A DNA stretch of 20,000 nt from Reclinomonas americana ATCC 50394 (Eukaryota). Under the pieces are notes generated by a model. It ran no database searches. It had not been told where the DNA came from and was given only the letters and a program-made list of their open reading frames with translations. Within the stretch, counting starts at the first letter, position 1. The number at the start of each line of letters is the position of its first letter. The stretch spans positions 44,130 through 64,129 of the forward strand of contig PS015122.1 of assembly GCA_048213135.1 (NCBI GenBank). Reading direction: 5' to 3'. Below, in pieces: positions 2-18,684 of the stretch. A program made the translations under genes and the position numbers.

Positions 2-2170
2 GTGCTGGAGCTCGTCGGGGAATGCATGGCTCTCAACAGACGGCACAATGAGGAGAATCTCTTTCTGCACAGTCCAGTGGAAGGAGTTATGTCGCCCCTC
101 GAAAGCATGGCTGCTGCTCGCACGCACAGTGCCTTATCCTCTGCCTTCTCCAGGTGATGGTAGCGCAAGTGCTGAGCGTGCTCACGCCGTGTACGACGCT
201 GGAGACGGCGGCCATGCTGCTCGAGCCGATTGGCAAGGCTCTGGGATTCGGGTTGCATCCGTCGGTGCGCGAGTTGTTTGAGAATTTTATCTGCCGCTTG
301 GTCCTCCGTTTCCCGACGCTGCTGCGCGACTCGCTGTGCAAGTAAGTCGGGAGGTCTTGTCGCCCGTTCTCTCAGCTTTGTGGTGGCTGACAGGCTCGCG
401 CGCGTCTCATGTGCAGGGAGTTGACCAACTTTGAACTGAAACCGATTCGTGCCGCCAGTCTGGTGGCCATCACCTGCATGTATCTGCTCGCAGTGGAACG
501 TGAAGAGTTCCTGGATGTGTTGAAAAAGGTTGCAACGTGCCGCTTGATGGCACGAAGAGGTGAAGCGCGATCTCACGCATGCATTCACAGGAGTTTTGGA
601 CGGTGTCGGCCTGGATCGCCACGCATTACCACTTGACGTGCAACTTGGTGCAGTACACGTGGGTCAAGGTTCACGAACGACTGCAGAGCGAAGGGTTGCG
701 TGCGCTCCTCCGTTCGCATCGTGCGTATTTTTCCTCGTGCTAACCGCGCTTCCTTCGGCAGTGGATCCCCCTTCACGCCCGAAATGAGTGCGTTCCTGGA
801 GAGCGTGGTAACATATGTGCGCACCAATCGAATTGCCCAAAAGAGCTTCCGTAAGGTGCGGGTTGAGTGGCATTGCTCTCCCCCCTGTAATGCACAGCCC
901 CTCAACACTAGTCGTTGTTGCAGAACATTCAATATGCGGCGCGCAATCAACAACGCGTCTTCCACTTGCCTGCTGTGCTGGCGGTGGAGACGTTGACAGA
1001 CCCGGAGCTCATCCGCGCATCTCTGAGTCGGGTACGATGTGCCGCCACTGTCTCTCTTCTGTTCACAACAGACAGTCGATCCTCACCTTATCGACGTGCA
1101 GAACATGATGCTCAGTGTGCGACTGGCGGGCTCCGAGTTCGCCAATCTGTTGGTGCACGACGAGCTGCTGCCCGGGTACCGTGAGCGCACGCTGCGCGAT
1201 CTGGTCTGCGAGCTGCCGGCCGTTGTTCTGGACGACGACAGTCGAGAAAGCCAGCCGCTGTCGCCACCGGCGGATGAGATGGAGTGGACACAAGGTGCAT
1301 AATGGTGCTGCTAGTGATCGAGGAGTTGTCCTTGTGGCAGTTGCTCACCTCCAGTGTAATGCGCCGTAGCGGCGCAACTGGTGGAGGCCAACTGGACGTG
1401 TCCCGAAGTCGAAAACTTTCAGCGCAAGGCTCGGACTGTCACAGACGAGACGCGCGAGTTCATTCTGGATCCAACGCGTGTGCGCAGTCACGGGTATGCT
1501 GAACCAACAAAGTGCTCGCTGTCCTCCAAATATCTTATCTGACACTGCGTGCACCAGACATCGGCACGAACTGATTCTGGTGGCCTCGCTCATTGACAAG
1601 GCCCCGAACCTCGGCGGCCTGTCGCGCACCTGCGAGATTTTCAATGTCGGCAAGCTGGTGGTCGCCGACAAGACCGTCATGCAGGTACGCGCGCCTCACC
1701 GACACCACCGCACTGCGCTCCCTTGCGACTCACCATGGCACAGGATACCATGTTTGTGCAACTGGCCATGACGGCCGAGCAGTGGCTGCCCATCGAAGAG
1801 GTACCAGTGGCCGACCTACCGGCCTACTTGCACCGCATGCAACACGACTGCGGCTACACACTGCTCGGCCTAGAACAAACGTCGCAGAGCGTCAGTCTCG
1901 AGCACTTTGAGTTCCCCGCGCGCTCGCTACTGCTCCTCGGCAGCGAGGGCGAAGGCATCCCACCCGAACTCCTCTCGCTGCTCGAGCGCACCATTGAGAT
2001 CCCGCAATTGGGCGTCGTGCGCTCCCTCAACGTCGTTGCGTGCACAGTGTTTTTGACGCAGCACTAACACCACTGATCATCATCCGCAGCACGTCAGCGG
2101 TGCCGTGGCCATGTGGGAATACACCAAACAGCGAGCTTTCGGCGGGCATGCAGTCCCACTTGCGCAATGA
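2..2170 (+). CDS. TARBP1: tRNA (guanosine-18-2'-O)-methyltransferase, TARBP1/Trm3 (SpoU family); 5'-partial, spliced
   Basis: Spliced C-terminus reads ELILVASLIDKAPNLGGLSRTCEIF...AEQWLPIEEV...LLGLEQT...LLLLGSEGEGIP...IEIPQLGVVRSLNV|HVSGAVAMWEYTKQ, the Trm3/TARBP1 SpoU motifs. Inferred GT-AG introns: 86-153, 342-416, 529-590, 695-761, 856-923, 1032-1071, 1295-1369, 1494-1557, 1685-1743, 2035-2089. Stop TGA at 2168-2170. Confidence 0.93.
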
Positions 2171-5832: not shown

Positions 5833-8334
<2,502 letters not shown>

Positions 8335-8651: not shown

Positions 8652-11600
8652 CTACACGGTGCCGTCGACATGCGCCGCGGGTGCAGCGGCCGTCTCTGTC
8701 GCTGCCACGGGCTCTACGGTGGTGGCGGCAAGTGCGGCGGCGACGGCGTCTGGAGGCGGGGCTTTGGTGTAGGCGCGCTCGTTCTCGGCCTCCCACTCGT
8801 CGCGTAGCGTGCGCAGGAACACGGCGGGCGTGTCGAGCTGTTGCAGGAAGAAGCCGCACGGTCGCTGCCAGTCGACACTGACGGTCACGGCCGCGCCGAG
8901 TTCGTGCGGTGGTAGGCAGAGCGGCGAGGTCACCACGTCTTGCCGCGGCATGTCGCCGTACACAATCAGTTGCGCAAAGCCGCGAATGGCCGCGACCTGC
9001 GAGACCATCGACGGTGAGTGATAACGAGGGGGGAAAAACTCAACTCGTGACACACTCACCGCCGTGAGGCACATGGGAAAGTTGATTTGCTCGCCATCCA
9101 TGACAATGAGGTGCAGCTTGCTGCGCGGGAATGAGCGCCATTCTTGCCAGCAACCCAACAGCGGCATGGTGACAAAGAAGACGCGTGCGGCGGAGGTGAC
9201 ATCGACGGCCTGCAGACGATAGGTAGAAGTGTGTGAGTGCGTGGCCTTCCATGCCAACTGGCATGTTCTCGTTCATCGCACACACCGACATGAGCGATTG
9301 CGTCGTCGACTCCACATGGCACCACTCCTGCTCGGCGACAAGCGAGTCGGGACGGGGTAGCCGCGAAATACCGTCGGGTGCGTCTGCAGTGTATCGCGAG
9401 ATGAGCGTCGTTATACAGTGCGCATCACGCTGCGAGAGACCACACACACACCTTCTCGGACAGTGACCGACGACAAGCCCGGCAGCAGCTGCAGGTATCG
9501 CGCTCGCGTAGCCAGCATCTGTGCATGACTCGCAAACAGCAGCATCACTTTCGAGTCGTGAAGCATGGTGGTCAGCAAGTCCACCATGCCCAGCTGGAGC
9601 AGCTTGCGACCTGGAAGGAGAGGGATAGCATGGTGAGAGCGAAGCTACAATCACGGTGAGATAGAGGAGTCAACACAATAGCGCACCACACTGGGGCAGG
9701 GCTCGGATCAACAGCACTCCGTGCACCAGTGACTTTTGCAGCGCCGTCTGCTGTCCAATGGTCCACTTTTCAATGCCCCACAGCGGACACCGTGCAGTCA
9801 GGTGGCTCTGCACCGCGTGGCGGCTGAACCGCTCGGTCAGATTCATGGTTTTGCCACTGGCCACACGCTTCATGCGCTGCGGCAGTGCCGGGTCGGTGAG
9901 GAACCTGGGGGAGAGAGAGAGGCGGCCGTGAGGAAACGCGACGAGGGTGGAGGCACGAGCATGCAACGCACCGGCGCAGACTGAGGCCGAGAACGCGCAG
10001 CAGCCAGTATCTGGCCTCGAGGGGAGCGGTCTCGAGGTGAGCAAGTTGGGCGGCGTACGACAGCTGTCGACAAGTACGTCGTGAGAAGAACCGCAATGCA
10101 AGAAGAGAGCGACAGGGAAAATTCCCGCACCGGAGGACGACCATCAATGAGACCATCGAGTGCGGTGACCAGTTGGCGCGCATCGACTTGCATCGGCTGC
10201 AGGTAGTTGAACGGGTCCTGCGCCACGACGGAGCGGATTCTCTCGTCGCCCATGTGCAACACGTGCTGCCGGCCAATGTCGATATTCTCAAAGGCCGCCA
10301 GCAGCGGCACCATGAAGCGCACGTCGCCGGCCGCGTAATCGAGCAGCACCTCCTTCATCGGGCGCACTTCCCACAAATTCCACTCCTTCCGCATCATGTC
10401 CTTGACACTGATCTGAGTGGAGGGAAGTTAGACGAAAGAGGTGCATGCTACTCCAGCAGGATGAGACGCGAAACTTTCTCGTCCACAATCGGCAAGTTGA
10501 AAAACTTGAGCACGTCATTGACACCGCAGCTGTTGCCCTTTTTGTGTGCGCCGACGCGTCGCTGGAGATCATTCATGGCCAGGAACGTGTCGAACACGCC
10601 GCGAGGAATGATGCCAAACTGGTGCGACAGTGCCGCCGTGTCGCAGCGCAGGTCGTGGATCACCTTGATGATATCCTCGCGCTCCAGAATCACTCGAAGC
10701 AACTGCATGTGAACGAGGGAAGGCGGTGAGGTGAGAGGGAGAAAGGGAGAGAGTGTGTGAGAGGGAAAGGGAGGGAGTGTGTGAGAGAGGGATGAAGAGG
10801 GAAAGGGAGAGAGAGGGCGACCATTATGTCAGCGAGCACAAAAAAAGAGAGGGAATGAGAGACAAGACACGCATTCGTGAAAGGAGAGAGAGAGAGGAGG
10901 AGTGGAGGAGGGAGGGAGCGAGAGACGCAACGCTATCCTCTCGCGCCAGCATTGTCGGCTCAACCACCACCTAACAAAGCAAAAATCAGGCGAGAGGGAA
11001 CGACAATAGCAGCATCACGGCAGTAGCAACAGTACGCACGTCAAACAGATACNNNNNNNNNNNNNNNNNNNNNNNNNNNNNNNNNNNNNNNNNNNNNNNN
11101 NNNNNNNNNNNNNNNNNNNNNNNNNNNNNNNNNNNNNNNNNNNNNNNNNNNNNNNNNNNNNNNNNNNNNNNNNNNNNNNNNNNNNNNNNNNNNNNNNNNN
11201 NNNNNNNNNNNNNNNNNNNNNNNNNNNNNNNNNNNNNNNNNNNNNNNNNNNNNNNNNNNNNNNNNNNNNNNNNNNNNNNNNNNNNNNNNNNNNNNNNNNN
11301 NNNNNNNNNNNNNNNNNNNNNNNNNNNNNNNNNNNNNNNNNNNNNNNNNNNNNNNNNNNNNNNNNNNNNNNNNNNNNNNNNNNNNNNNNNNNNNNNNNNN
11401 NNNNNNNNNNNNNNNNNNNNNNNNNNNNNNNNNNNNNNNNNNNNNNNNNNNNNNNNNNNNNNNNNNNNNNNNNNNNNNNNNNNNNNNNNNNNNNNNNNNN
11501 NNNNNNNNNNNNNNNNNNNNNNNNNNNNNNNNNNNNNNNNNNNNNNNNNNNNNNNNNNNNNNNNNNNNNNNNNNNNNNNNNNNNNNNNNNNNNNNNNNNN

Positions 11601-11692
11601 NNNNNNNNNNNNNNNNNNNNNNNNNNNNNNNNNNNNNNNNNNNNNNNNNNNNNNAGGAAGAGAGAGAACGAACGACGACGACGTAGTAGAGA

Positions 11693-11724
<32 letters not shown>

Positions 11725-12369
11725 CGAGAGACGCAACGCTATCCTCTCGCGCCAGCATTGTCGGCTCAACCACCACCTAACAAAGCAAAAATCAGGCGAG
11801 AGGGAACGACAATAGCAGCATCACGGCAGTAGCAACAGTACGCACGTCAAACAGATACACATTCTGATCGACATCCGACAGTTGCATCAGGCAGAGACGA
11901 CCTCTGGACATCGCGGTGAGCACACACACTACGAACGCTTGCACAAACGATTGAACTCACGTGTATCCGAGACTGACACCCTCACAATCCCAGCCAAGCA
12001 CAGTGCTCGAGTCCAGCAATCGTTGCGACACGGCCTGGCACTGCGCGTACGTCGTAATGTAGTGCGTCTCGGCACTGTCGTTTGGCACAAACGGGATTGG
12101 AGCTACGCATGAACGCAGGTGAGATGATCATCAACAACAGGAACAAACACGCAGTCGATCGCGTCCACGCACGAGGATCAGGCATGCGAATGGTTCCCGA
12201 CGACTCTGCGCACAGCATCATTCGTCAGTGGCGGAGAACGATGAAGAAGGAGAGAGAGAGGAGGAGGAGGAGGAGAAGGAGGAGGAGGAGGACAAGAAGA
12301 AGAAGGAGAATAAGAAGAACAAGAACAAGAACAAGAAGAAGAACAAGAAGAAGAAGAAGAAGAAGAAGA

Positions 12370-12411
<42 letters not shown>

Positions 12412-12450
12412 GAGGAATAAGAAGAAGAAGNNNNNNNNNNNNNNNNNNNN

Positions 12451-12487
<37 letters not shown>

Positions 12488-12811
12488 CTCCTCTCTCTCT
12501 CTCTCTCTCACTCTCCTCTCTCTCTTCTCTTCTCTCTCTCTTCTCTCTCTCTTCTCTCTCTCTCTTCTCTCTCTCTCTCTTCTCTCTCTCTTCTCTCACA
12601 CCTCATAAGGAAAGCCCGCATGTGCAATGTGCGCGGGAATGAGCCTATCGCCCGCAGTCGAGGAGGAGTCAGTGGCAAGTGACGAGCACGAGGCCTCATC
12701 ACTCACACCGTCCTCAGTCACCACATCATCCTCTGCACCTGCACACACACACACACACACGTGAGACACAGAGAGTGAGCAGAGAGGAGCACAGACAGCG
12801 CAACTGCTCAT
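8652..12811 (-). CDS. EXD1/Egalitarian-like DEDDy 3'-5' exonuclease with a C-terminal degenerate SF1B (Upf1-like) helicase-like domain; spliced, spans two assembly gaps
   Basis: Exonuclease motifs: ExoI VLGWDCEGVSLGYT|GRLCLMQLSD...VYLFD (~11845-11995); ExoII ILEREDIIKVIHDLRCDTAALSHQFGI...VFDT (10590-10700); ExoIII WEVRPMKEVLLDYAAGDV (10320-10375). The frame continues through GT-AG introns to stop TAG at 8652-8654. Proposed start ATGAGCA at 12811 with intron 12804-12739 gives MSSAEDDVVTED. One N-terminal junction (12601 to ~12205) is unresolved. Confidence 0.85.
10908..11858. repeat. 145-bp direct duplication (10908-11052 and 11714-11858) flanking a 602-N gap
   Basis: The stretch gagggagggagcgagagacgcaacgctatcc...gtcaaacagatac occurs on both sides of the gap. 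It contains the exon VVVEPTMLAREDS. Confidence 0.95.
11053..11654. other. Assembly gap (other gaps: 12431-12450, 14673-14695, 15485-15569)
   Basis: Runs of N. Confidence 0.99.
12243..12597. repeat. Compound intronic microsatellite: (GAG)n/(AAG)n/(GA)n purine tract, 20-N gap, then (CT)n pyrimidine tract
   Basis: Read directly. Lies within an inferred intron of the exonuclease gene. Confidence 0.95.
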
Positions 12812-12867: not shown

Positions 12868-14189
12868 ATGAGCGACGAGCAGCCTCGCTGTCCACTCAAC
12901 TGGAGTGTACGCGAGGAGCCCACTGCCTCCTCCTCCACCGGCCTCGTCGGCGCAGTTGCGTATGCGCAATCTTTGTAAAAAAGAAGTTTGCGCGCGAAAA
13001 TCACACTCACAGAAAAACAGCGTCGCGGTGTCACTCTTCCTCCGATTGTCGTTGCTCCACAACTGCCTTCCTTTAGCGGCGGTGGCAGCAGTGATGCAGG
13101 CGCAGAGGCTTCTATGATTGTGGCCGCGGCCTTGGCTGCAGCAGCTGCGCGACAGACAGAGACGTCGTCGCCGGTGACTCCTCCCCACTATGCGCCTTCG
13201 CCACTGTCGCCGACGCGTTTGTGGGCCGGTCAGCAGGTGTATCAGTATGCTCCGGTGGTGGTGGCGAGTGAGGCGGAGGAGGCGGCGTATTATGAGTCGG
13301 CAATTGCGTTGGAGCTGAAGGCGTTTGCGGCGGATCTTGGAGCTGCTTCTTCTTCGACGACGACGACCACAACGACGACGACTACTGTGAGTGGGAAGCG
13401 TTTGCGAGGAGAGGACGAGCAGGAGGAGCAGGTGGCGGCGACGGTGGCGGTCAAGAGACCACCGAGAAAGCGCAGAAAGCTGCTGATCTCGTCGTCGGAC
13501 GATGGTGCCGATCGGAAGAAGAAGGCGAAACGAAAGACACTGGCATCTCCTTCCTCCTCGTCATCGTCATCGTCGTCGTCGTCATCGTCGTCATCATCTT
13601 CTGATGAAGGCGACGATAAGCCACTGTCGGCGCTGCTCATGGGAAAGAAGGGCAAGCAGGTCAATCATCGCTGTCCACCACCACAGTCGTTCCATCTGTG
13701 TGCTCACTGCCGACGTGCAGGCCAAGAGTGCTGCTGCTGCTCCTGCTCCTGTTCCACCACCACCACCACCACCTCCAGCTCCAGCTCCAGCTCCGGCTCC
13801 GGCGCAACCTGCGCCGCCCAAGATCCGCACCAGTGGCAAGAAGCTGAAGATTGAGCAGGCGGAGATCCCGCGCTTCAAGTACGACTCGACGGCGCCCATC
13901 TTCAGGTGCCCGTCCTCACCCTCGCCAGTGATGTCCCTTGCTCCTCACTCTCATGTCCATGCGCAGTGGTATTCGGCAAAAGATGTTGGGTGCACTGATC
14001 GAGCAAGCGGCGTGGTTGCCGCAATGCCTCAACGCGAAACACGTGATTCGGTACGCGATGCAGCTGGAGGAGAACGCGTACACTCGGAGTCGTGGAGTGG
14101 AGGTGGTGTACAAGGGATCGATAGCGGCCGATGTGATGCGCATCAAGAGGGCGGTGGCGAGCAAGGAGATGTTGACAGACGTGCGGTAA
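12868..14189 (+). CDS. Low-complexity, probably nuclear protein with a C-terminal REXO1/RECQL5-KIX-like helical domain; spliced
   Basis: Proposed ATG at 12868 with intron 12955-13020 (alternative ATG at 13114); further introns 13660-13720 and 13906-13966. Contains poly-T, poly-S and poly-P tracts, basic NLS-like KRPPRKRRK and RKKKAKRK, and C-terminus IPRFKYDSTAPIFSGIRQKMLGALIEQ...AMQLEENAYTRSRGVEVVYKGSIAADVMRIKR. Confidence 0.7.
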
Positions 14190-14362
14190 ACGACAAGAGT
14201 AGATTTGGCTTGGGGAAACGAAACAGCATTTACACACACACGCACTCACGCATGCACACGCGGAGGATCCGGTGGCTGGTGGGAGGGGAAAGAACAACGG
14301 GAAACACGCACGACCGGCACAATGAGGACGGCAGATATTTGGGGGTGTGAAGCGCAGGAGAC

Positions 14363-15569
14363 TCAGTTCTCTTGCTCGTCGGTGTCCGGCTCGGCGTCCT
14401 TCTCGCCACCGTCGTCGTCGGGCAGCACAAAGTCGTCCTCCACGGCGTACCTGCATTGGTGGTGAGTGTCACCACGCGGGTGTGCATCATCCTGCGGGAG
14501 GCGAGACGCAACAGAATCTTGGTGACTTCCTCGAGGAAAGGTGGCACGGCGTCGGGGGCGGCCTCCTGCGTTGTCTGGCACATAATCTCAATGTCGCGCA
14601 GCTTGCCAAAGTAGAAGTCACGCTCGCGCTCCAGGCCGTCCACAATCAGCTTCAGCTCGGCCAGTTGTTGCTNNNNNNNNNNNNNNNNNNNNNNNGGAAG
14701 GAGAAGGAGAGCAAAAGAGACGGTGCAGGGGAGGATGACAAGGAAGAGATTTGCATGGGGAGTTTTTGGAGACCTTCGATCTGCGTCAACGCCGGCCGCT
14801 TGACTGTTCGGTGGACACATGTGCACACACGCATACACACACACAATGCAGGGCACCGACGATGTATGAGCGGCTTTGCCGAGGAGCAGTACCCATGCTT
14901 TTTCCTCCTCTGAAACTCACTCTGGCCCAGTTCCCCGACGCACACACGCACACACAATCAGCACGCCCTCAAACCGTTGTAGCGGGCAATGGCCGAATCG
15001 CGCTCGTACTTGGCGTCGTACGGCGTCTGGTCGTAGTGCAACTCAAAATACCGCTTCATCCACTGCAGATGCGTGGTGAGCCGCGTGTGGAGCGAGAAAA
15101 CAATCATCAGCAACACTACAAACGCGCCTGCACAAACTCCAAGTTGTCGAGGTACTTGGCCTTGACGAGCTTGTCGACCTCAATGTTCTGCACGCGCGCA
15201 GTCAGTCGCCGTGTGCAGCGCAGCTGCGAGAATAATAATGAGTACCTTCTTGATGTTCAGCTTGCTGAAAGCCGCCTGCAGGATCTTGAAGTTGTTGACA
15301 TACTCGTGCTCCAGCTTGGCGTTGAAGTTGACCTTGTGCAGTGCGATCGAGTCTGCACACACAAGTTGTCAGTCAGCAGACAGCACAGAAATGCACAGGG
15401 TGCCCGAGGAGCGCAATACACACCAGGGAACAGAATGTGCATCAGCTGGCAGTGAGCCGCTCCTGTGAGAGAGAGGCAAGGCGANNNNNNNNNNNNNNNN
15501 NNNNNNNNNNNNNNNNNNNNNNNNNNNNNNNNNNNNNNNNNNNNNNNNNNNNNNNNNNNNNNNNNNNNN

Positions 15570-16438: not shown

Positions 16439-18684
16439 ATGAGCCAGCGTCGCTTTGATTTGACTGTGTTTGGTGCCACGGGTTACACTGGTTACTAGTC
16501 CATCGCAGCATGCTTCACTCTATGCATTTTTTCACTCACTTTTTTTGTCTTTTTTGTGTCTTTGTGTCTTTCTCTCTGTGTGTGTGTTGTTGTTGTCAGG
16601 CACGCTGATTGCCGAGTACCTCGCAAAGCAGCATTACGATGCGAGCAAGCTGTGTTTGGCCGGGCGGAGGTGAGTGCTTGCGTGAACGGAGTTGATTGAT
16701 CGGAGTTCGCATGCACGCACACACGCGTTTCTCTCCGTCTCCTCTCTGTCTGTGTCTCTGTCTGCATGTGCATGAGTGGCCGAGTGCGCCCTTGTGTCTG
16801 TGTGCATTGGAACTTGTACAAAGTGAAGATTCTCTCTCATGATCACTTTGCAGCAAGGAGAAGCTGGAGGCTCTCAAGAAGCACTTGGAGGTGCGTGCAT
16901 TCTCTCCTCCTCCCTGCCTGCCTGCCTCACACTCTCTGTATCTCACCGCGCACACTTGCCCGACATGCAGAGCATTGAGAAATCGTTCAATCGCGTCAAC
17001 CTGCTGGTGGCCAGTGTCGACAATGCCGACGAGGTCGAGGCCATGATCCGCCTCACCAAGGTCGTTGTCAACTGCGTTGGTCCCTTCTTCCGCTACTCCG
17101 AGGTCGTCGTCCGCAACTGTGTCGAGCACGGCACTGATTACGTCGATATCACGTTGCGTCACTCTCTCGAATACAGGTCATCTGCTCCTCACTCATGCGC
17201 GAGTGCAGTGGCGAGCCCAACTTCATTGCGCTGATGATGGACAAGTATCAGGAGCAGGCCGAGCGCAACAATGTGCTCATTATTTCTGCGTGCGGCTTCG
17301 ATTCGGTGCCCGCCGATGTCGGCGTGCAGTACGCGCGTCAGCAGTTCGGCATCGATCGTGTGCGCTCCGTCGAGGGCTATGTGTCGCTGAAGAACTTTGG
17401 GTTGTCGGCCGGCACGTGGAACACCATGCTGGACAGGTGGGGCAATGGGGGGAAGAGGGGAGGGGGAGGAAAGGGGCAAGGGGGATAGAGAAGGCGCAGA
17501 AGCAAGAATTGTGAGGGCATGTGTGTGTTTATGCGAGAGAGCGAAGCTGAGGAATATGGTAGTCTCTTGAATTCGTCCACCAGGTGATAGAAACAGATTT
17601 TGTCACTCTCTGTGGTGGTGCTTCATGAGACGGAGCAAGCGTCGTATTCGTGTCAGATGAGAAGAAGTGTGAGGAAAGCGTTGATGAGCACCGAGAGGGA
17701 GAAATTGAGTACTGCATTAGCGTGTCATGTTTGCGTTTATTGCGGGCACCGCCGTCGCCTTCCGCTCACCATCGCTTCTCCGACCCCACAGCATCGCCAA
17801 CGCCAAGCAGATGGCTGCCGTGCGTCGCAAGAGTGCTGGCCCGCCGCCGGCTTCGATCCCGAAGGTCTGCTCTTTCCACGTATTCCTTTTCCAAACTCTC
17901 TCTCTCTCTCTCACGTATTCTCGCGTCGCGCAGGAAAAGCGCGTGCTCAAGAAGCTGCCGCACAAGTGCAAGCAGATGGACAACACGTGGTGCATTCCAT
18001 TTGCCACCTCCGACCCGTTTGTGGTGCGCAAGACGATTGAGATCCAGGCGGACAAGTCGATGCCCTACTTCCAGTACGGCCACTACCTGTCGGTTGGCGG
18101 TCTGTTCCGACTGATCATCATGGCGCTGGGATTCGCGTTGGGTTGCGTCGATCAGCACGCGAGCAAGAACTCGGCCTGTGACTCACTTGTGTTCGTGCCA
18201 GTGTTCCTGCTTGCCAAGTTCAAGCTCACGCGCGACCTGCTCCGCAAGTACAAGTCGGAGGGCTCGGGGTGAGTTACCTGGAGGAAGGGTGCGTGTGTGC
18301 TCGACCTTTCTCAACTGTGTGATCTCGGCTCGTGCAGCTCGTCGGTCGAGAGCCGCCAGTCGAGTCGCTCGAGAATTCTGTTCGTCGCTCGCGACGACAA
18401 CGGGAAGCTCCTGGGACAGGCGGAGTTCACCGGCGCTGATCCCTATGATGTCACCGCTGTGACTGTCGTGCAGGCGGCGCGCGTGTTGCTGGAGAAGAGA
18501 GTTGCGTCTGCAACGCTACCTTTCTCTCTCCATCTCACTGTTCTTCTCACACGCTGCTGCTGCTGTTGCGCAGGAGCAACTGCCGATGCGTGGTGGTGTG
18601 GCCACCCCAGTGTCGGCACTCGGCGACGTGTACACGGACTACCTGATGCGCTGCCCGGAGATTGCCTTCCGCAAGGTGGAATGA
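16439..18684 (+). CDS. SCCPDH: Saccharopine dehydrogenase-like oxidoreductase (SCCPDH family); spliced
   Basis: Rossmann N-terminus MSQRRFDLTVFGATGYTG, then LAGRS|KEKL, VVVNCVGPFFRYSEVVVRNCVEHGTDYVDIT|GEP, IISACGFDSVPADVG, SAGTWNT, DPYDVTA and GGVATPVSALG. Stop TGA at 18682-18684. Confidence 0.93.

Follow-up and report, generated by a model that had tools for sequence, protein, structure and literature searches.

We describe a gene on the minus strand of a 20,000-nucleotide (nt) stretch of DNA from Reclinomonas americana ATCC 50394 (assembly GCA_048213135.1, contig PS015122.1, positions 44,130 to 64,129); this whole stretch is called the window, and positions are counted from its first letter. 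Residues ~30–205 of the gene product constitute a DEDDy 3'–5' exonuclease of the RNase D / Egalitarian-EXD1 branch, which is most likely catalytically active, because all five catalytic residues are in place. For the C-terminal half we tentatively favour, with a probability of about 0.4, an interpretation in which the active exonuclease has been joined to a decayed, ATPase-dead remnant of a superfamily 1 (SF1)-type, Upf1-like helicase, limited to the first RecA-like domain (RecA1) and serving as a binding appendage. A previous reading of the same DNA, made from its letters alone (the sequence-only reading), had presented the gene as an EXD1-like exonuclease fused to a catalytically degenerate Upf1-like helicase domain.

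Splice signals and reading phase were used to rebuild the gene, which in this model has 11 minus-strand exons (12221..8652) and encodes a product of 606 amino acids (aa). All the introns (10/10) have GT..AG borders, the donors being mostly GTG(C/A/T)G, their phases are compatible throughout and no stop codon occurs before that at 8652. Nine of the 10 introns are 57–76 nt long, and the tenth, between exons e2 and e3, contains a run of undetermined nucleotides (N gap). The features of the model are listed below; block scores are those of the motif-chain test described in the section on the C-terminal half, and codon usage refers to the frame of the model.

12173–12221, minus strand: start exon e0 (17 aa), with the ATG at 12221–12219, an in-frame TGA two codons upstream and a phase-1 donor, GTGCGT; best of six frames by codon usage.
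11961–12102, minus strand: exon e1, with ExoI (D-C-E at 11989–11981), aligned to the DxE of the RNase D-type profile.
11846–11903, minus strand: exon e2, the strand after ExoI (LCLMQLS segment), with the profile alignment unbroken over the e1/e2 and e2/e3 junctions.
10703–11845, minus strand: intron 2, containing the N gap 11053–11654, flanked by a direct repeat.
10475–10702, minus strand: exon e3, with ExoII (HDLRCD, 10657–10640) and FDT (10594–10586); Pfam PF01612 match, and Egalitarian as the best match in PDB.
10131–10412, minus strand: exon e4, with ExoIII (YAAGD, 10337–10323) and post-domain helices; second domain of the profile match (residues 170–200) and a weak PF01612 match (profile positions 141–170, E 0.19).
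9972–10063, minus strand: exon e4b, a 92-nt linker exon with a 67-nt intron on either side; codon usage 0.45 bits/codon, best of six frames.
9687–9904, minus strand: exon e5, with the Q-motif-like segment (9753–9727) and the beginning of the Walker-A-like segment (AxxxxG, followed by RK after the splice); local placement by hhalign at P 0.15; block scores Q +5.4 and I −14.2.
9452–9610, minus strand: exon e6, with the motif-Ia-like segment (9551–9516) and the VTVRE strand (9467–9453); block scores Ia −17.1 and VRlG +5.6; codon usage 0.37 bits/codon.
9286–9383, minus strand: exon e6b, of 98 nt, the weakest exon of the model; its phases fit, and codon usage is 0.12 bits/codon, best of six frames.
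9060–9209, minus strand: exon e7, with the motif-Ib-like segment (9188–9168) and the Walker-B-like segment (LIVMDGEQ, 9110–9087, with D-G for D-E); block scores Ib +3.5 and II −4.6; HMMER local alignment of −4.2 bits on motifs II–III.
8652–8996, minus strand: exon e8, with the motif-III-like segment (LIVYGDMPRQ, 8969–8940), a low-complexity Ala/Pro/Thr tail and the stop (coding 8996–8655, stop 8654–8652); block score III −5.0; codon usage 0.31 bits/codon.

The exonuclease half

Pfam scans were made exon by exon, the 17-aa exon e0 not being scanned on its own. Exon e3 alone matched PF01612 (DNA_pol_A_exo1) with 33.4 and 30.9 bits, above the cut-off of 23.6, and the spliced N-terminus obtained 43.4 bits (E 1.5e-15, one target) against an RNase D-type profile built from 34 bacterial domains. 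This alignment started at model residue 32, was continuous over the e1/e2 and e2/e3 junctions and placed DCE on the family motif DtE, HDLRCD on HaarqD and YAAGD on YAAdD. The statement of the sequence-only reading that all the DEDDy residues are present was thereby confirmed (5/5). Exon e1 alone had neither a Pfam domain nor a match in PDB.

Among solved structures, the best match to exon e3 was Drosophila Egalitarian (E 5.3e-8; ~40% identity over ~70 residues, counted on the alignment, including IHDxRxD and FDT), which we take to be the fly relative of EXD1 and with which the protein shares a PF01612-type domain. The other PDB matches to this exon were far weaker, with E values of 5.8e-4 for NanoRNase C and 0.24 for Rrp6, and the RNase D-like protein of entries 7c42/7c45, presumably trypanosome RND, also lay far behind. 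No EXD1 chain (BmExd1 or mouse EXD1) was found among the PDB matches to exon e3 at E ≤ 1. Exon e4 aligned with 7c45 over an identical YAAGDV (E 0.025). Searches of exons e3 and e4 against longer proteins returned no homologue, and that of exon e4 against metagenome contigs returned no match. As in the active RNase D-type exonucleases (bacterial RNase D, the 7c42/7c45 protein and NanoRNase C), the five catalytic residues are present, aligned with the profile of 34 bacterial members. Unlike these enzymes, the protein has no Pfam match, in the per-exon scan, to an HRDC domain, which was considered for the region after the exonuclease and rejected, or to a CCHC zinc finger, and its C-terminal partner is different.

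The term "EXD1-like" is apt as regards the match to Egalitarian, but the features that define EXD1, the Lsm domain and the lost DEDD residues, were not found; judged by sequence, the protein is Egalitarian/EXD1-like without being an EXD1. The published account of animal EXD1 (PMC4712191) describes an inactive protein that has lost its DEDD residues, binds the TDRD12 helicase core through an N-terminal Lsm domain and has a C-terminal dimerisation hook. Relative to that account, the protein studied here differs in having 5/5 DEDDy residues, and in having only ~31 residues before the exonuclease, which leaves no room for an Lsm domain like that of animal EXD1. Its C-terminus is also unrelated to that of EXD1, as far as our tools tell.

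The C-terminal half and its resemblance to helicases

The C-terminal coding region comprises ~350 aa (residues ~254–606), with the proposed helicase-like core at ~330–515. All the peptide strings quoted by the sequence-only reading could be located in a single spliced frame of the minus strand. Those of the C-terminal half are, in order, the Q-motif-like QQTALQKSL (9753–9727), the Walker-A-like VLLIRALPQCGRK (9717–9603), which spans the e5/e6 intron, the motif-Ia-like KVMLLFASHAQM (9551–9516), and ARVFFVT (9188–9168), LIVMDGEQ (9110–9087) and LIVYGDMPRQ (8969–8940), resembling motifs Ib, II (Walker B) and III, respectively. The Walker A position reads A-L-P-Q-C-G-R-K (AxxxxGRK), not GxxxxGK[ST]; the Walker B position reads M-D-G-E-Q (D-G), not D-E-x-x-Q; and motif III reads Y-G-D-M-P-R-Q (GDxxxQ), not G-D-x-x-Q. 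The Walker A Lys-Thr and the Walker B Glu are therefore absent (ALPQCGRK; MDGEQ), as had been stated. It had also been stated, correctly, that no second RecA domain (RecA2, AAA_12; motifs IV–VI) follows: the stop at 8654–8652 comes directly after the low-complexity tail, and the list of open reading frames (ORFs) contains no further minus-strand coding ORF before the next gene, near 8330.

The arrangement of these segments was assessed by a motif-chain test, in which seven ungapped family blocks (Q, I, Ia, VRlG, Ib, II and III) were scored colinearly by dynamic programming. With gaps held to those of the family ±3 residues, 7/7 blocks fell at the positions given by the sequence-only reading, and the score, −26.2 as against −52.7 (standard deviation 7.6) for shuffled sequences, was equalled by 1/1000 shuffles and by 0/22 long ORFs of the window. 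A stricter null consisted of 486 real prokaryotic ORFs taken from the fetched loci, each at least 250 aa long and encoding neither a helicase nor PhoH. Three of them scored as well, an SF2 (superfamily 2) helicase, a DHH phosphoesterase and a Schlafen AlbA_2 protein, the last belonging to a class that often carries a helicase. Genuine PhoH proteins scored from −71.7 to −1.4 (median −14.8), values that bracket the candidate. At tolerances of 2–5 residues, 0–4/500 shuffles and 2–4/486 real ORFs were as good; the corresponding figures were 22–33/500 and 14–24/486 at tolerance 0, and 8–10/500 and 15–18/486 at tolerances of 10–20.

Three methods (hhalign, HMMER and the motif-chain dynamic programming) independently chose the register of the sequence-only reading. 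The hhalign placement (P 0.15) put the QQTALQKSL...ALPQCGR segment on the Q motif and GPPGTGK of the family, and the local alignment to the HMMER helicase profile put DGEQ...YGD on motifs II–III. In addition, the spacing is maintained over two splice junctions, for the choice of which nothing but splice signals had been used. Together these observations are suggestive of a modest but repeatable signal of an SF1-type RecA1 strand and motif layout, with the helicase-like series on the borderline of what chance would give. In order and spacing, the motif series proposed earlier lies in the top 0–1% of the nulls at tolerances of 2–5 and in the top 2–7% at other settings; it was not significant by HMMER, by hhalign or in the free-gap chain.

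Several results weigh against a helicase origin. No Pfam family, AAA_11 included, was found on any C-terminal exon at E ≤ 10; of the two domains that the sequence-only reading had named for a profile search, DNA_pol_A_exo1 was thus recovered above its cut-off and AAA_11 was not matched. A helicase reference was assembled from 35 prokaryotic proteins of ~600–700 aa with complete ends, chosen from the ORFs of 116 loci and carrying both AAA_11 and AAA_12 in 35/35 cases; against the HMMER profile of this family, the C-terminus scored −2.3 bits, with 46/1000 shuffles as good, and the whole protein −5.5 bits. Comparison with the same family by hhalign gave P 0.1–0.15, with 14/100 shuffles as good. 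The motif chain with free gaps retained 6/7 blocks at the positions of the sequence-only reading, at z 1.55 and with 76/1000 shuffles as good. Its spacing-aware version was designed post hoc, after the alignment had been seen, and its p value shifts with tolerance from ~0–0.008 to 0.03–0.07 (2–7% at other settings). The absolute log-odds of the chain are negative, with blocks I (−14.2) and Ia (−17.1) fitting badly and Ia not being a catalytic motif, and one of the three ORFs that match the chain, the DHH protein, does not have a P-loop fold. Since SF2 and ABC ATPases are likewise picked up, the test cannot say "Upf1-like" or separate SF1 from other RecA-like or P-loop cores.

Searches with the C-terminal sequence point in the same direction. 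They were made, as was the folding, with a 185-aa piece, the translation of exon e7, the in-frame intron and exon e8, which is the sole contiguous piece. When 1.84 billion representative proteins were scanned with HMMER, 0 matches were obtained at E ≤ 0.001, with no self match, and hence no evidence of conservation. AlphaFold2, run on the piece without an alignment, yielded a mean predicted local distance difference test (pLDDT) score of 37.9 and a predicted template modelling (pTM) score of 0.26, which gave no basis for a fold search. No match was obtained with longer proteins or with metagenome contigs, and phmmer matches in PDB were at chance level only (best E 0.26, for a hypothetical protein; V-type ATPase alpha at 0.6–1.2, outside its P-loop). 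The ESM Atlas returned nothing usable for this piece and, for exon e5, only unnamed clusters at 0.79–0.80, below the recognition score of known families. By standard sequence criteria the C-terminal half falls outside the Upf1-like family, and the identification as a Upf1-like helicase domain was not established by the per-exon Pfam scan, the AAA_11/AAA_12 profile or hhalign. On these searches it is a lineage-restricted coding region, with no detectable relative in the collections searched.

The intron between e7 and e8 (9059–8997, minus strand), which this piece includes, is 63 nt long, in frame and free of stop codons; its retention would add 21 residues between the Walker-B-like and motif-III-like segments and leave the protein unbroken.

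According to the interpretation that we favour, the core at ~330–515 would derive, by decay, from the first RecA-like domain of an SF1-type helicase, and motifs Q, I, Ia, Ib, II and III would have kept their order and near-family spacing, and the Walker A Lys/Thr and Walker B Glu would have been lost. As these residues are lost and there is no second RecA domain, no ATP hydrolysis or translocation would be expected. The C-terminal half might then bind nucleic acid or protein passively, as an appendage by which the exonuclease is positioned or regulated.

It is nearly as probable that the C-terminal 350 aa form a domain specific to the lineage or a region that is partly disordered, in either case without kinship to helicases, with the resemblance reflecting a generic alternation of hydrophobic strands and helices. 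All the null results of the standard homology tests (per-exon Pfam, helicase profile, hhalign, phmmer against PDB and the PhoH profile considered below) are consistent with this alternative, as are the lack of relatives of the C-terminal piece in the collections searched, the ESM Atlas score below those of known families and the equal chain score of the DHH protein; moreover, all the diagnostic catalytic residues of the proposed helicase are missing, such that nothing specific anchors the alignment. It accounts less well for the family-spacing chain, which lies in the top 0–1% of shuffles and real ORFs at tolerances of 2–5 and never beyond the top 7%, for the convergence of three algorithms on one register and for the spacing that holds over two junctions picked by splice signals only. 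The gene and its active exonuclease would be unchanged, but an active Egalitarian-like exonuclease with an orphan tail would be of local interest only.

Continuity of the gene

Codon usage was scored with a table of 490 codons drawn from neighbouring genes only, with the frames checked. The frame of the model was the best of six in 11/11 exons (0.12–0.45 bits/codon), with the C-terminal exons (0.12–0.37) in the same range as those of the exonuclease (0.13–0.44) and the introns at ~0 or below. Because the phases fit and the model frame is the best of six in every exon, these data argue that the two halves likely belong to one gene with a single transcript. The sequence-only reading had placed both halves in one spliced frame, and the C-terminal region does lie in the same phase-consistent gene; the start, however, is further out than proposed (ATG at 12221), and exons 10063–9972 and 9383–9286 had not been listed. 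The corrected 11-exon model is a concrete annotation, whichever interpretation of the C-terminal half holds.

A first exon model, in which 10131 was joined directly to 9876 and 9450 to 9209, gave way to the present one, which includes e4b and e6b and in which the introns are of a uniform 57–76 nt and strong acceptors are used. Exon e4b splits a 254-nt "intron" into two introns of 67 nt. Its importance lies in the phase-2 donor required by the strong acceptor at 9905/9904, for which e4b is the only source. A second AG acceptor, at 9877/9876 (minus strand), lies 28 nt downstream of the strong one and is in phase with the donor at 10131, such that skipping of e4b would also be in frame. Given this in-frame route from 10131 to 9877/9876, the fusion does not depend on e4b.

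We consider it unlikely that the locus contains two adjacent genes, with the exonuclease ending shortly after 10131 and a second gene beginning at an ATG at 9873–9871 (M-K-R-V...). Such an arrangement would fit the presence of this in-frame ATG where the helicase-like frame begins, as well as the fact that, without splicing at 10131, the exonuclease frame continues to a stop at 9870 (9872–9870), which overlaps the ATG; the spacing of ~230 nt would also resemble the ~320 nt from the stop of the gene to the apparent start of the next. Nevertheless, the 254 nt between 10131 and 9876 hold e4b, with its 0.45 bits/codon, between two 67-nt GT..AG introns with phases exact for reading on, and the second in-frame route leads to the same result. 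The unspliced read-through past 10131 to a separate stop scored poorly in codon usage in an earlier scan, for which the training set was flawed (two exons of the same gene and one out-of-frame piece).

The N gap in intron 2 (602 N) is flanked by a 166-nt direct repeat with 96% identity between its copies, at 10887–11052 and 11693–11858, the upper of which takes in the donor of exon e2 and the final 13 nt of that exon. Repeat and gap are probably a scaffold-join artefact, from overlapping contig ends, rather than a real duplication, and their collapse would leave an intron of ~337 nt, by arithmetic. The gap lies wholly inside the intron, leaving the coding sequence untouched. A mis-assembled or decaying locus (N gap and duplicated exon end, or a pseudogenised C-terminus), from which the 606-aa product would not be made as modelled, is very improbable: the gap with a repeat taking in part of exon e2, the lack of relatives of the C-terminal region and the weak coding signal of e6b would suit it, but the frame is open and correct in 11/11 exons with codon usage like that of the neighbours, all the DEDDy residues are intact and the gap is intronic.

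Related systems and the surrounding window

The Upf1-like SF1B helicases (AAA_11 and AAA_12) include UPF1, IGHMBP2 and MOV10. The C-terminal half resembles them in its series of segments similar to Q, I, Ia, Ib, II and III, which are ordered as in the family and keep to its spacing within ±2 residues. It differs from them in the failed profile tests, in its AxxxxGRK, D-G and GDxxxQ sequences and in the absence of an AAA_12 half, and is not a member on these tests. PhoH is a distant single-RecA relative of SF1 and is fused to a PIN nuclease in PhoH2. The candidate would likewise be a single RecA-like domain without RecA2 beside a nuclease, and the chain scores of PhoH proteins bracket its own; unlike PhoH, it gave no signal with a 30-member profile of the PhoH-like ATPases (PF02562; −1.2 bits, 185/1000 shuffles as good), and this assignment was rejected. 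A Mut7-C (PIN-like) C-terminus, such as occurs in EXD3/Mut-7, was also considered, but the per-exon scan gave no PF01927 match and no CxxC zinc-ribbon pairs are visible, no dedicated profile having been run.

Fusions of an exonuclease with a complete helicase provide a further comparison. In WRN, a DEDDy exonuclease is fused to a RecQ helicase. DinG with an N-terminal DEDD exonuclease is reported as another such fusion (PMC12345164, PMC12525004). As in WRN and in DinG so described, a DEDD-type 3'–5' exonuclease here would precede a helicase-type module in one polypeptide, but the helicases of those proteins are complete, active SF2 enzymes, whereas at most a single dead SF1-like RecA1 remnant would be present here. 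No description of a DEDDy exonuclease fused to a Upf1-like helicase was found among the literature matches listed, in a limited full-text search that is no proof of absence.

If the C-terminal half is a dead half-helicase, the gene would encode an unusual nuclease/pseudo-helicase fusion, in which what was an ATPase core has been reused to bind substrate passively for an enzyme that trims RNA or DNA. Such a protein would add a new form to the exonuclease-helicase fusions, already known from complete SF2 cases, and would provide an evolutionary hint on the EXD1-helicase partnership of PIWI-interacting RNA (piRNA) biogenesis in animals. By analogy, one could go further and see in it a "Rosetta-stone" fusion, an improbable reading in which a dead RecA1-only SF1 remnant, covalently linked to an active exonuclease of the Egalitarian/EXD1 type, would serve as its RNA-handling arm, as compared with the dead EXD1 of animals acting in trans with the TDRD12 helicase core. 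In that event, the exonuclease-helicase partnership of small-RNA or RNA-decay pathways would predate animals, and either partner could be the one that is inactivated. The link to small-RNA pathways drawn by the sequence-only reading is one of analogy only, and the window offers nothing for or against it.

The window is GC-rich (~57%), with many short introns, microsatellites and four N gaps, and no Rfam family was found in it. The neighbours of the exonuclease gene, a SpoU methylase, a GT28/UDPGT glycosyltransferase, an EB1 protein and a saccharopine-dehydrogenase-like gene, are of the housekeeping type, and none is tied to RNA silencing. On the downstream side, the next gene apparently starts near 8330, from the ORF list, and the only exon there with a Pfam match is 7324–7542. 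This glycosyltransferase gene (5836–7542, minus strand) carries a GT28 N-terminal domain at 7324–7542 and an EryCIII-like_C/UDPGT region at 5836–6270; it may have an acidic N-terminal first exon near 8330–8100, and a long (CA)n microsatellite lies at ~7800–7940 in the intervening intron. A SpoU-type RNA methyltransferase exon is located at 1597–2067 (plus strand; PF00588, E 2.6e-16).

Upstream of the exonuclease gene, an EB1-like C-terminal motif was identified at 14233–14670 (minus strand; PF03271, E 3.6e-15), adjoining an N gap at 14673–14695, and a saccharopine-dehydrogenase NADP-binding exon at 16827–17234 (plus strand; PF03435, E 2.2e-8). The putative promoter region, 12230–12610, consists almost entirely of (TC)n/(GA)n and (GAA)n-type low-complexity sequence and includes a 20-N gap at 12431–12450. 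At 12979–13854 (plus strand) lies an open frame of 291 codons, rich in lysine patches and in runs of Ser, Thr and Ala, which had no Pfam match and may represent a gene transcribed divergently from that of the exonuclease.

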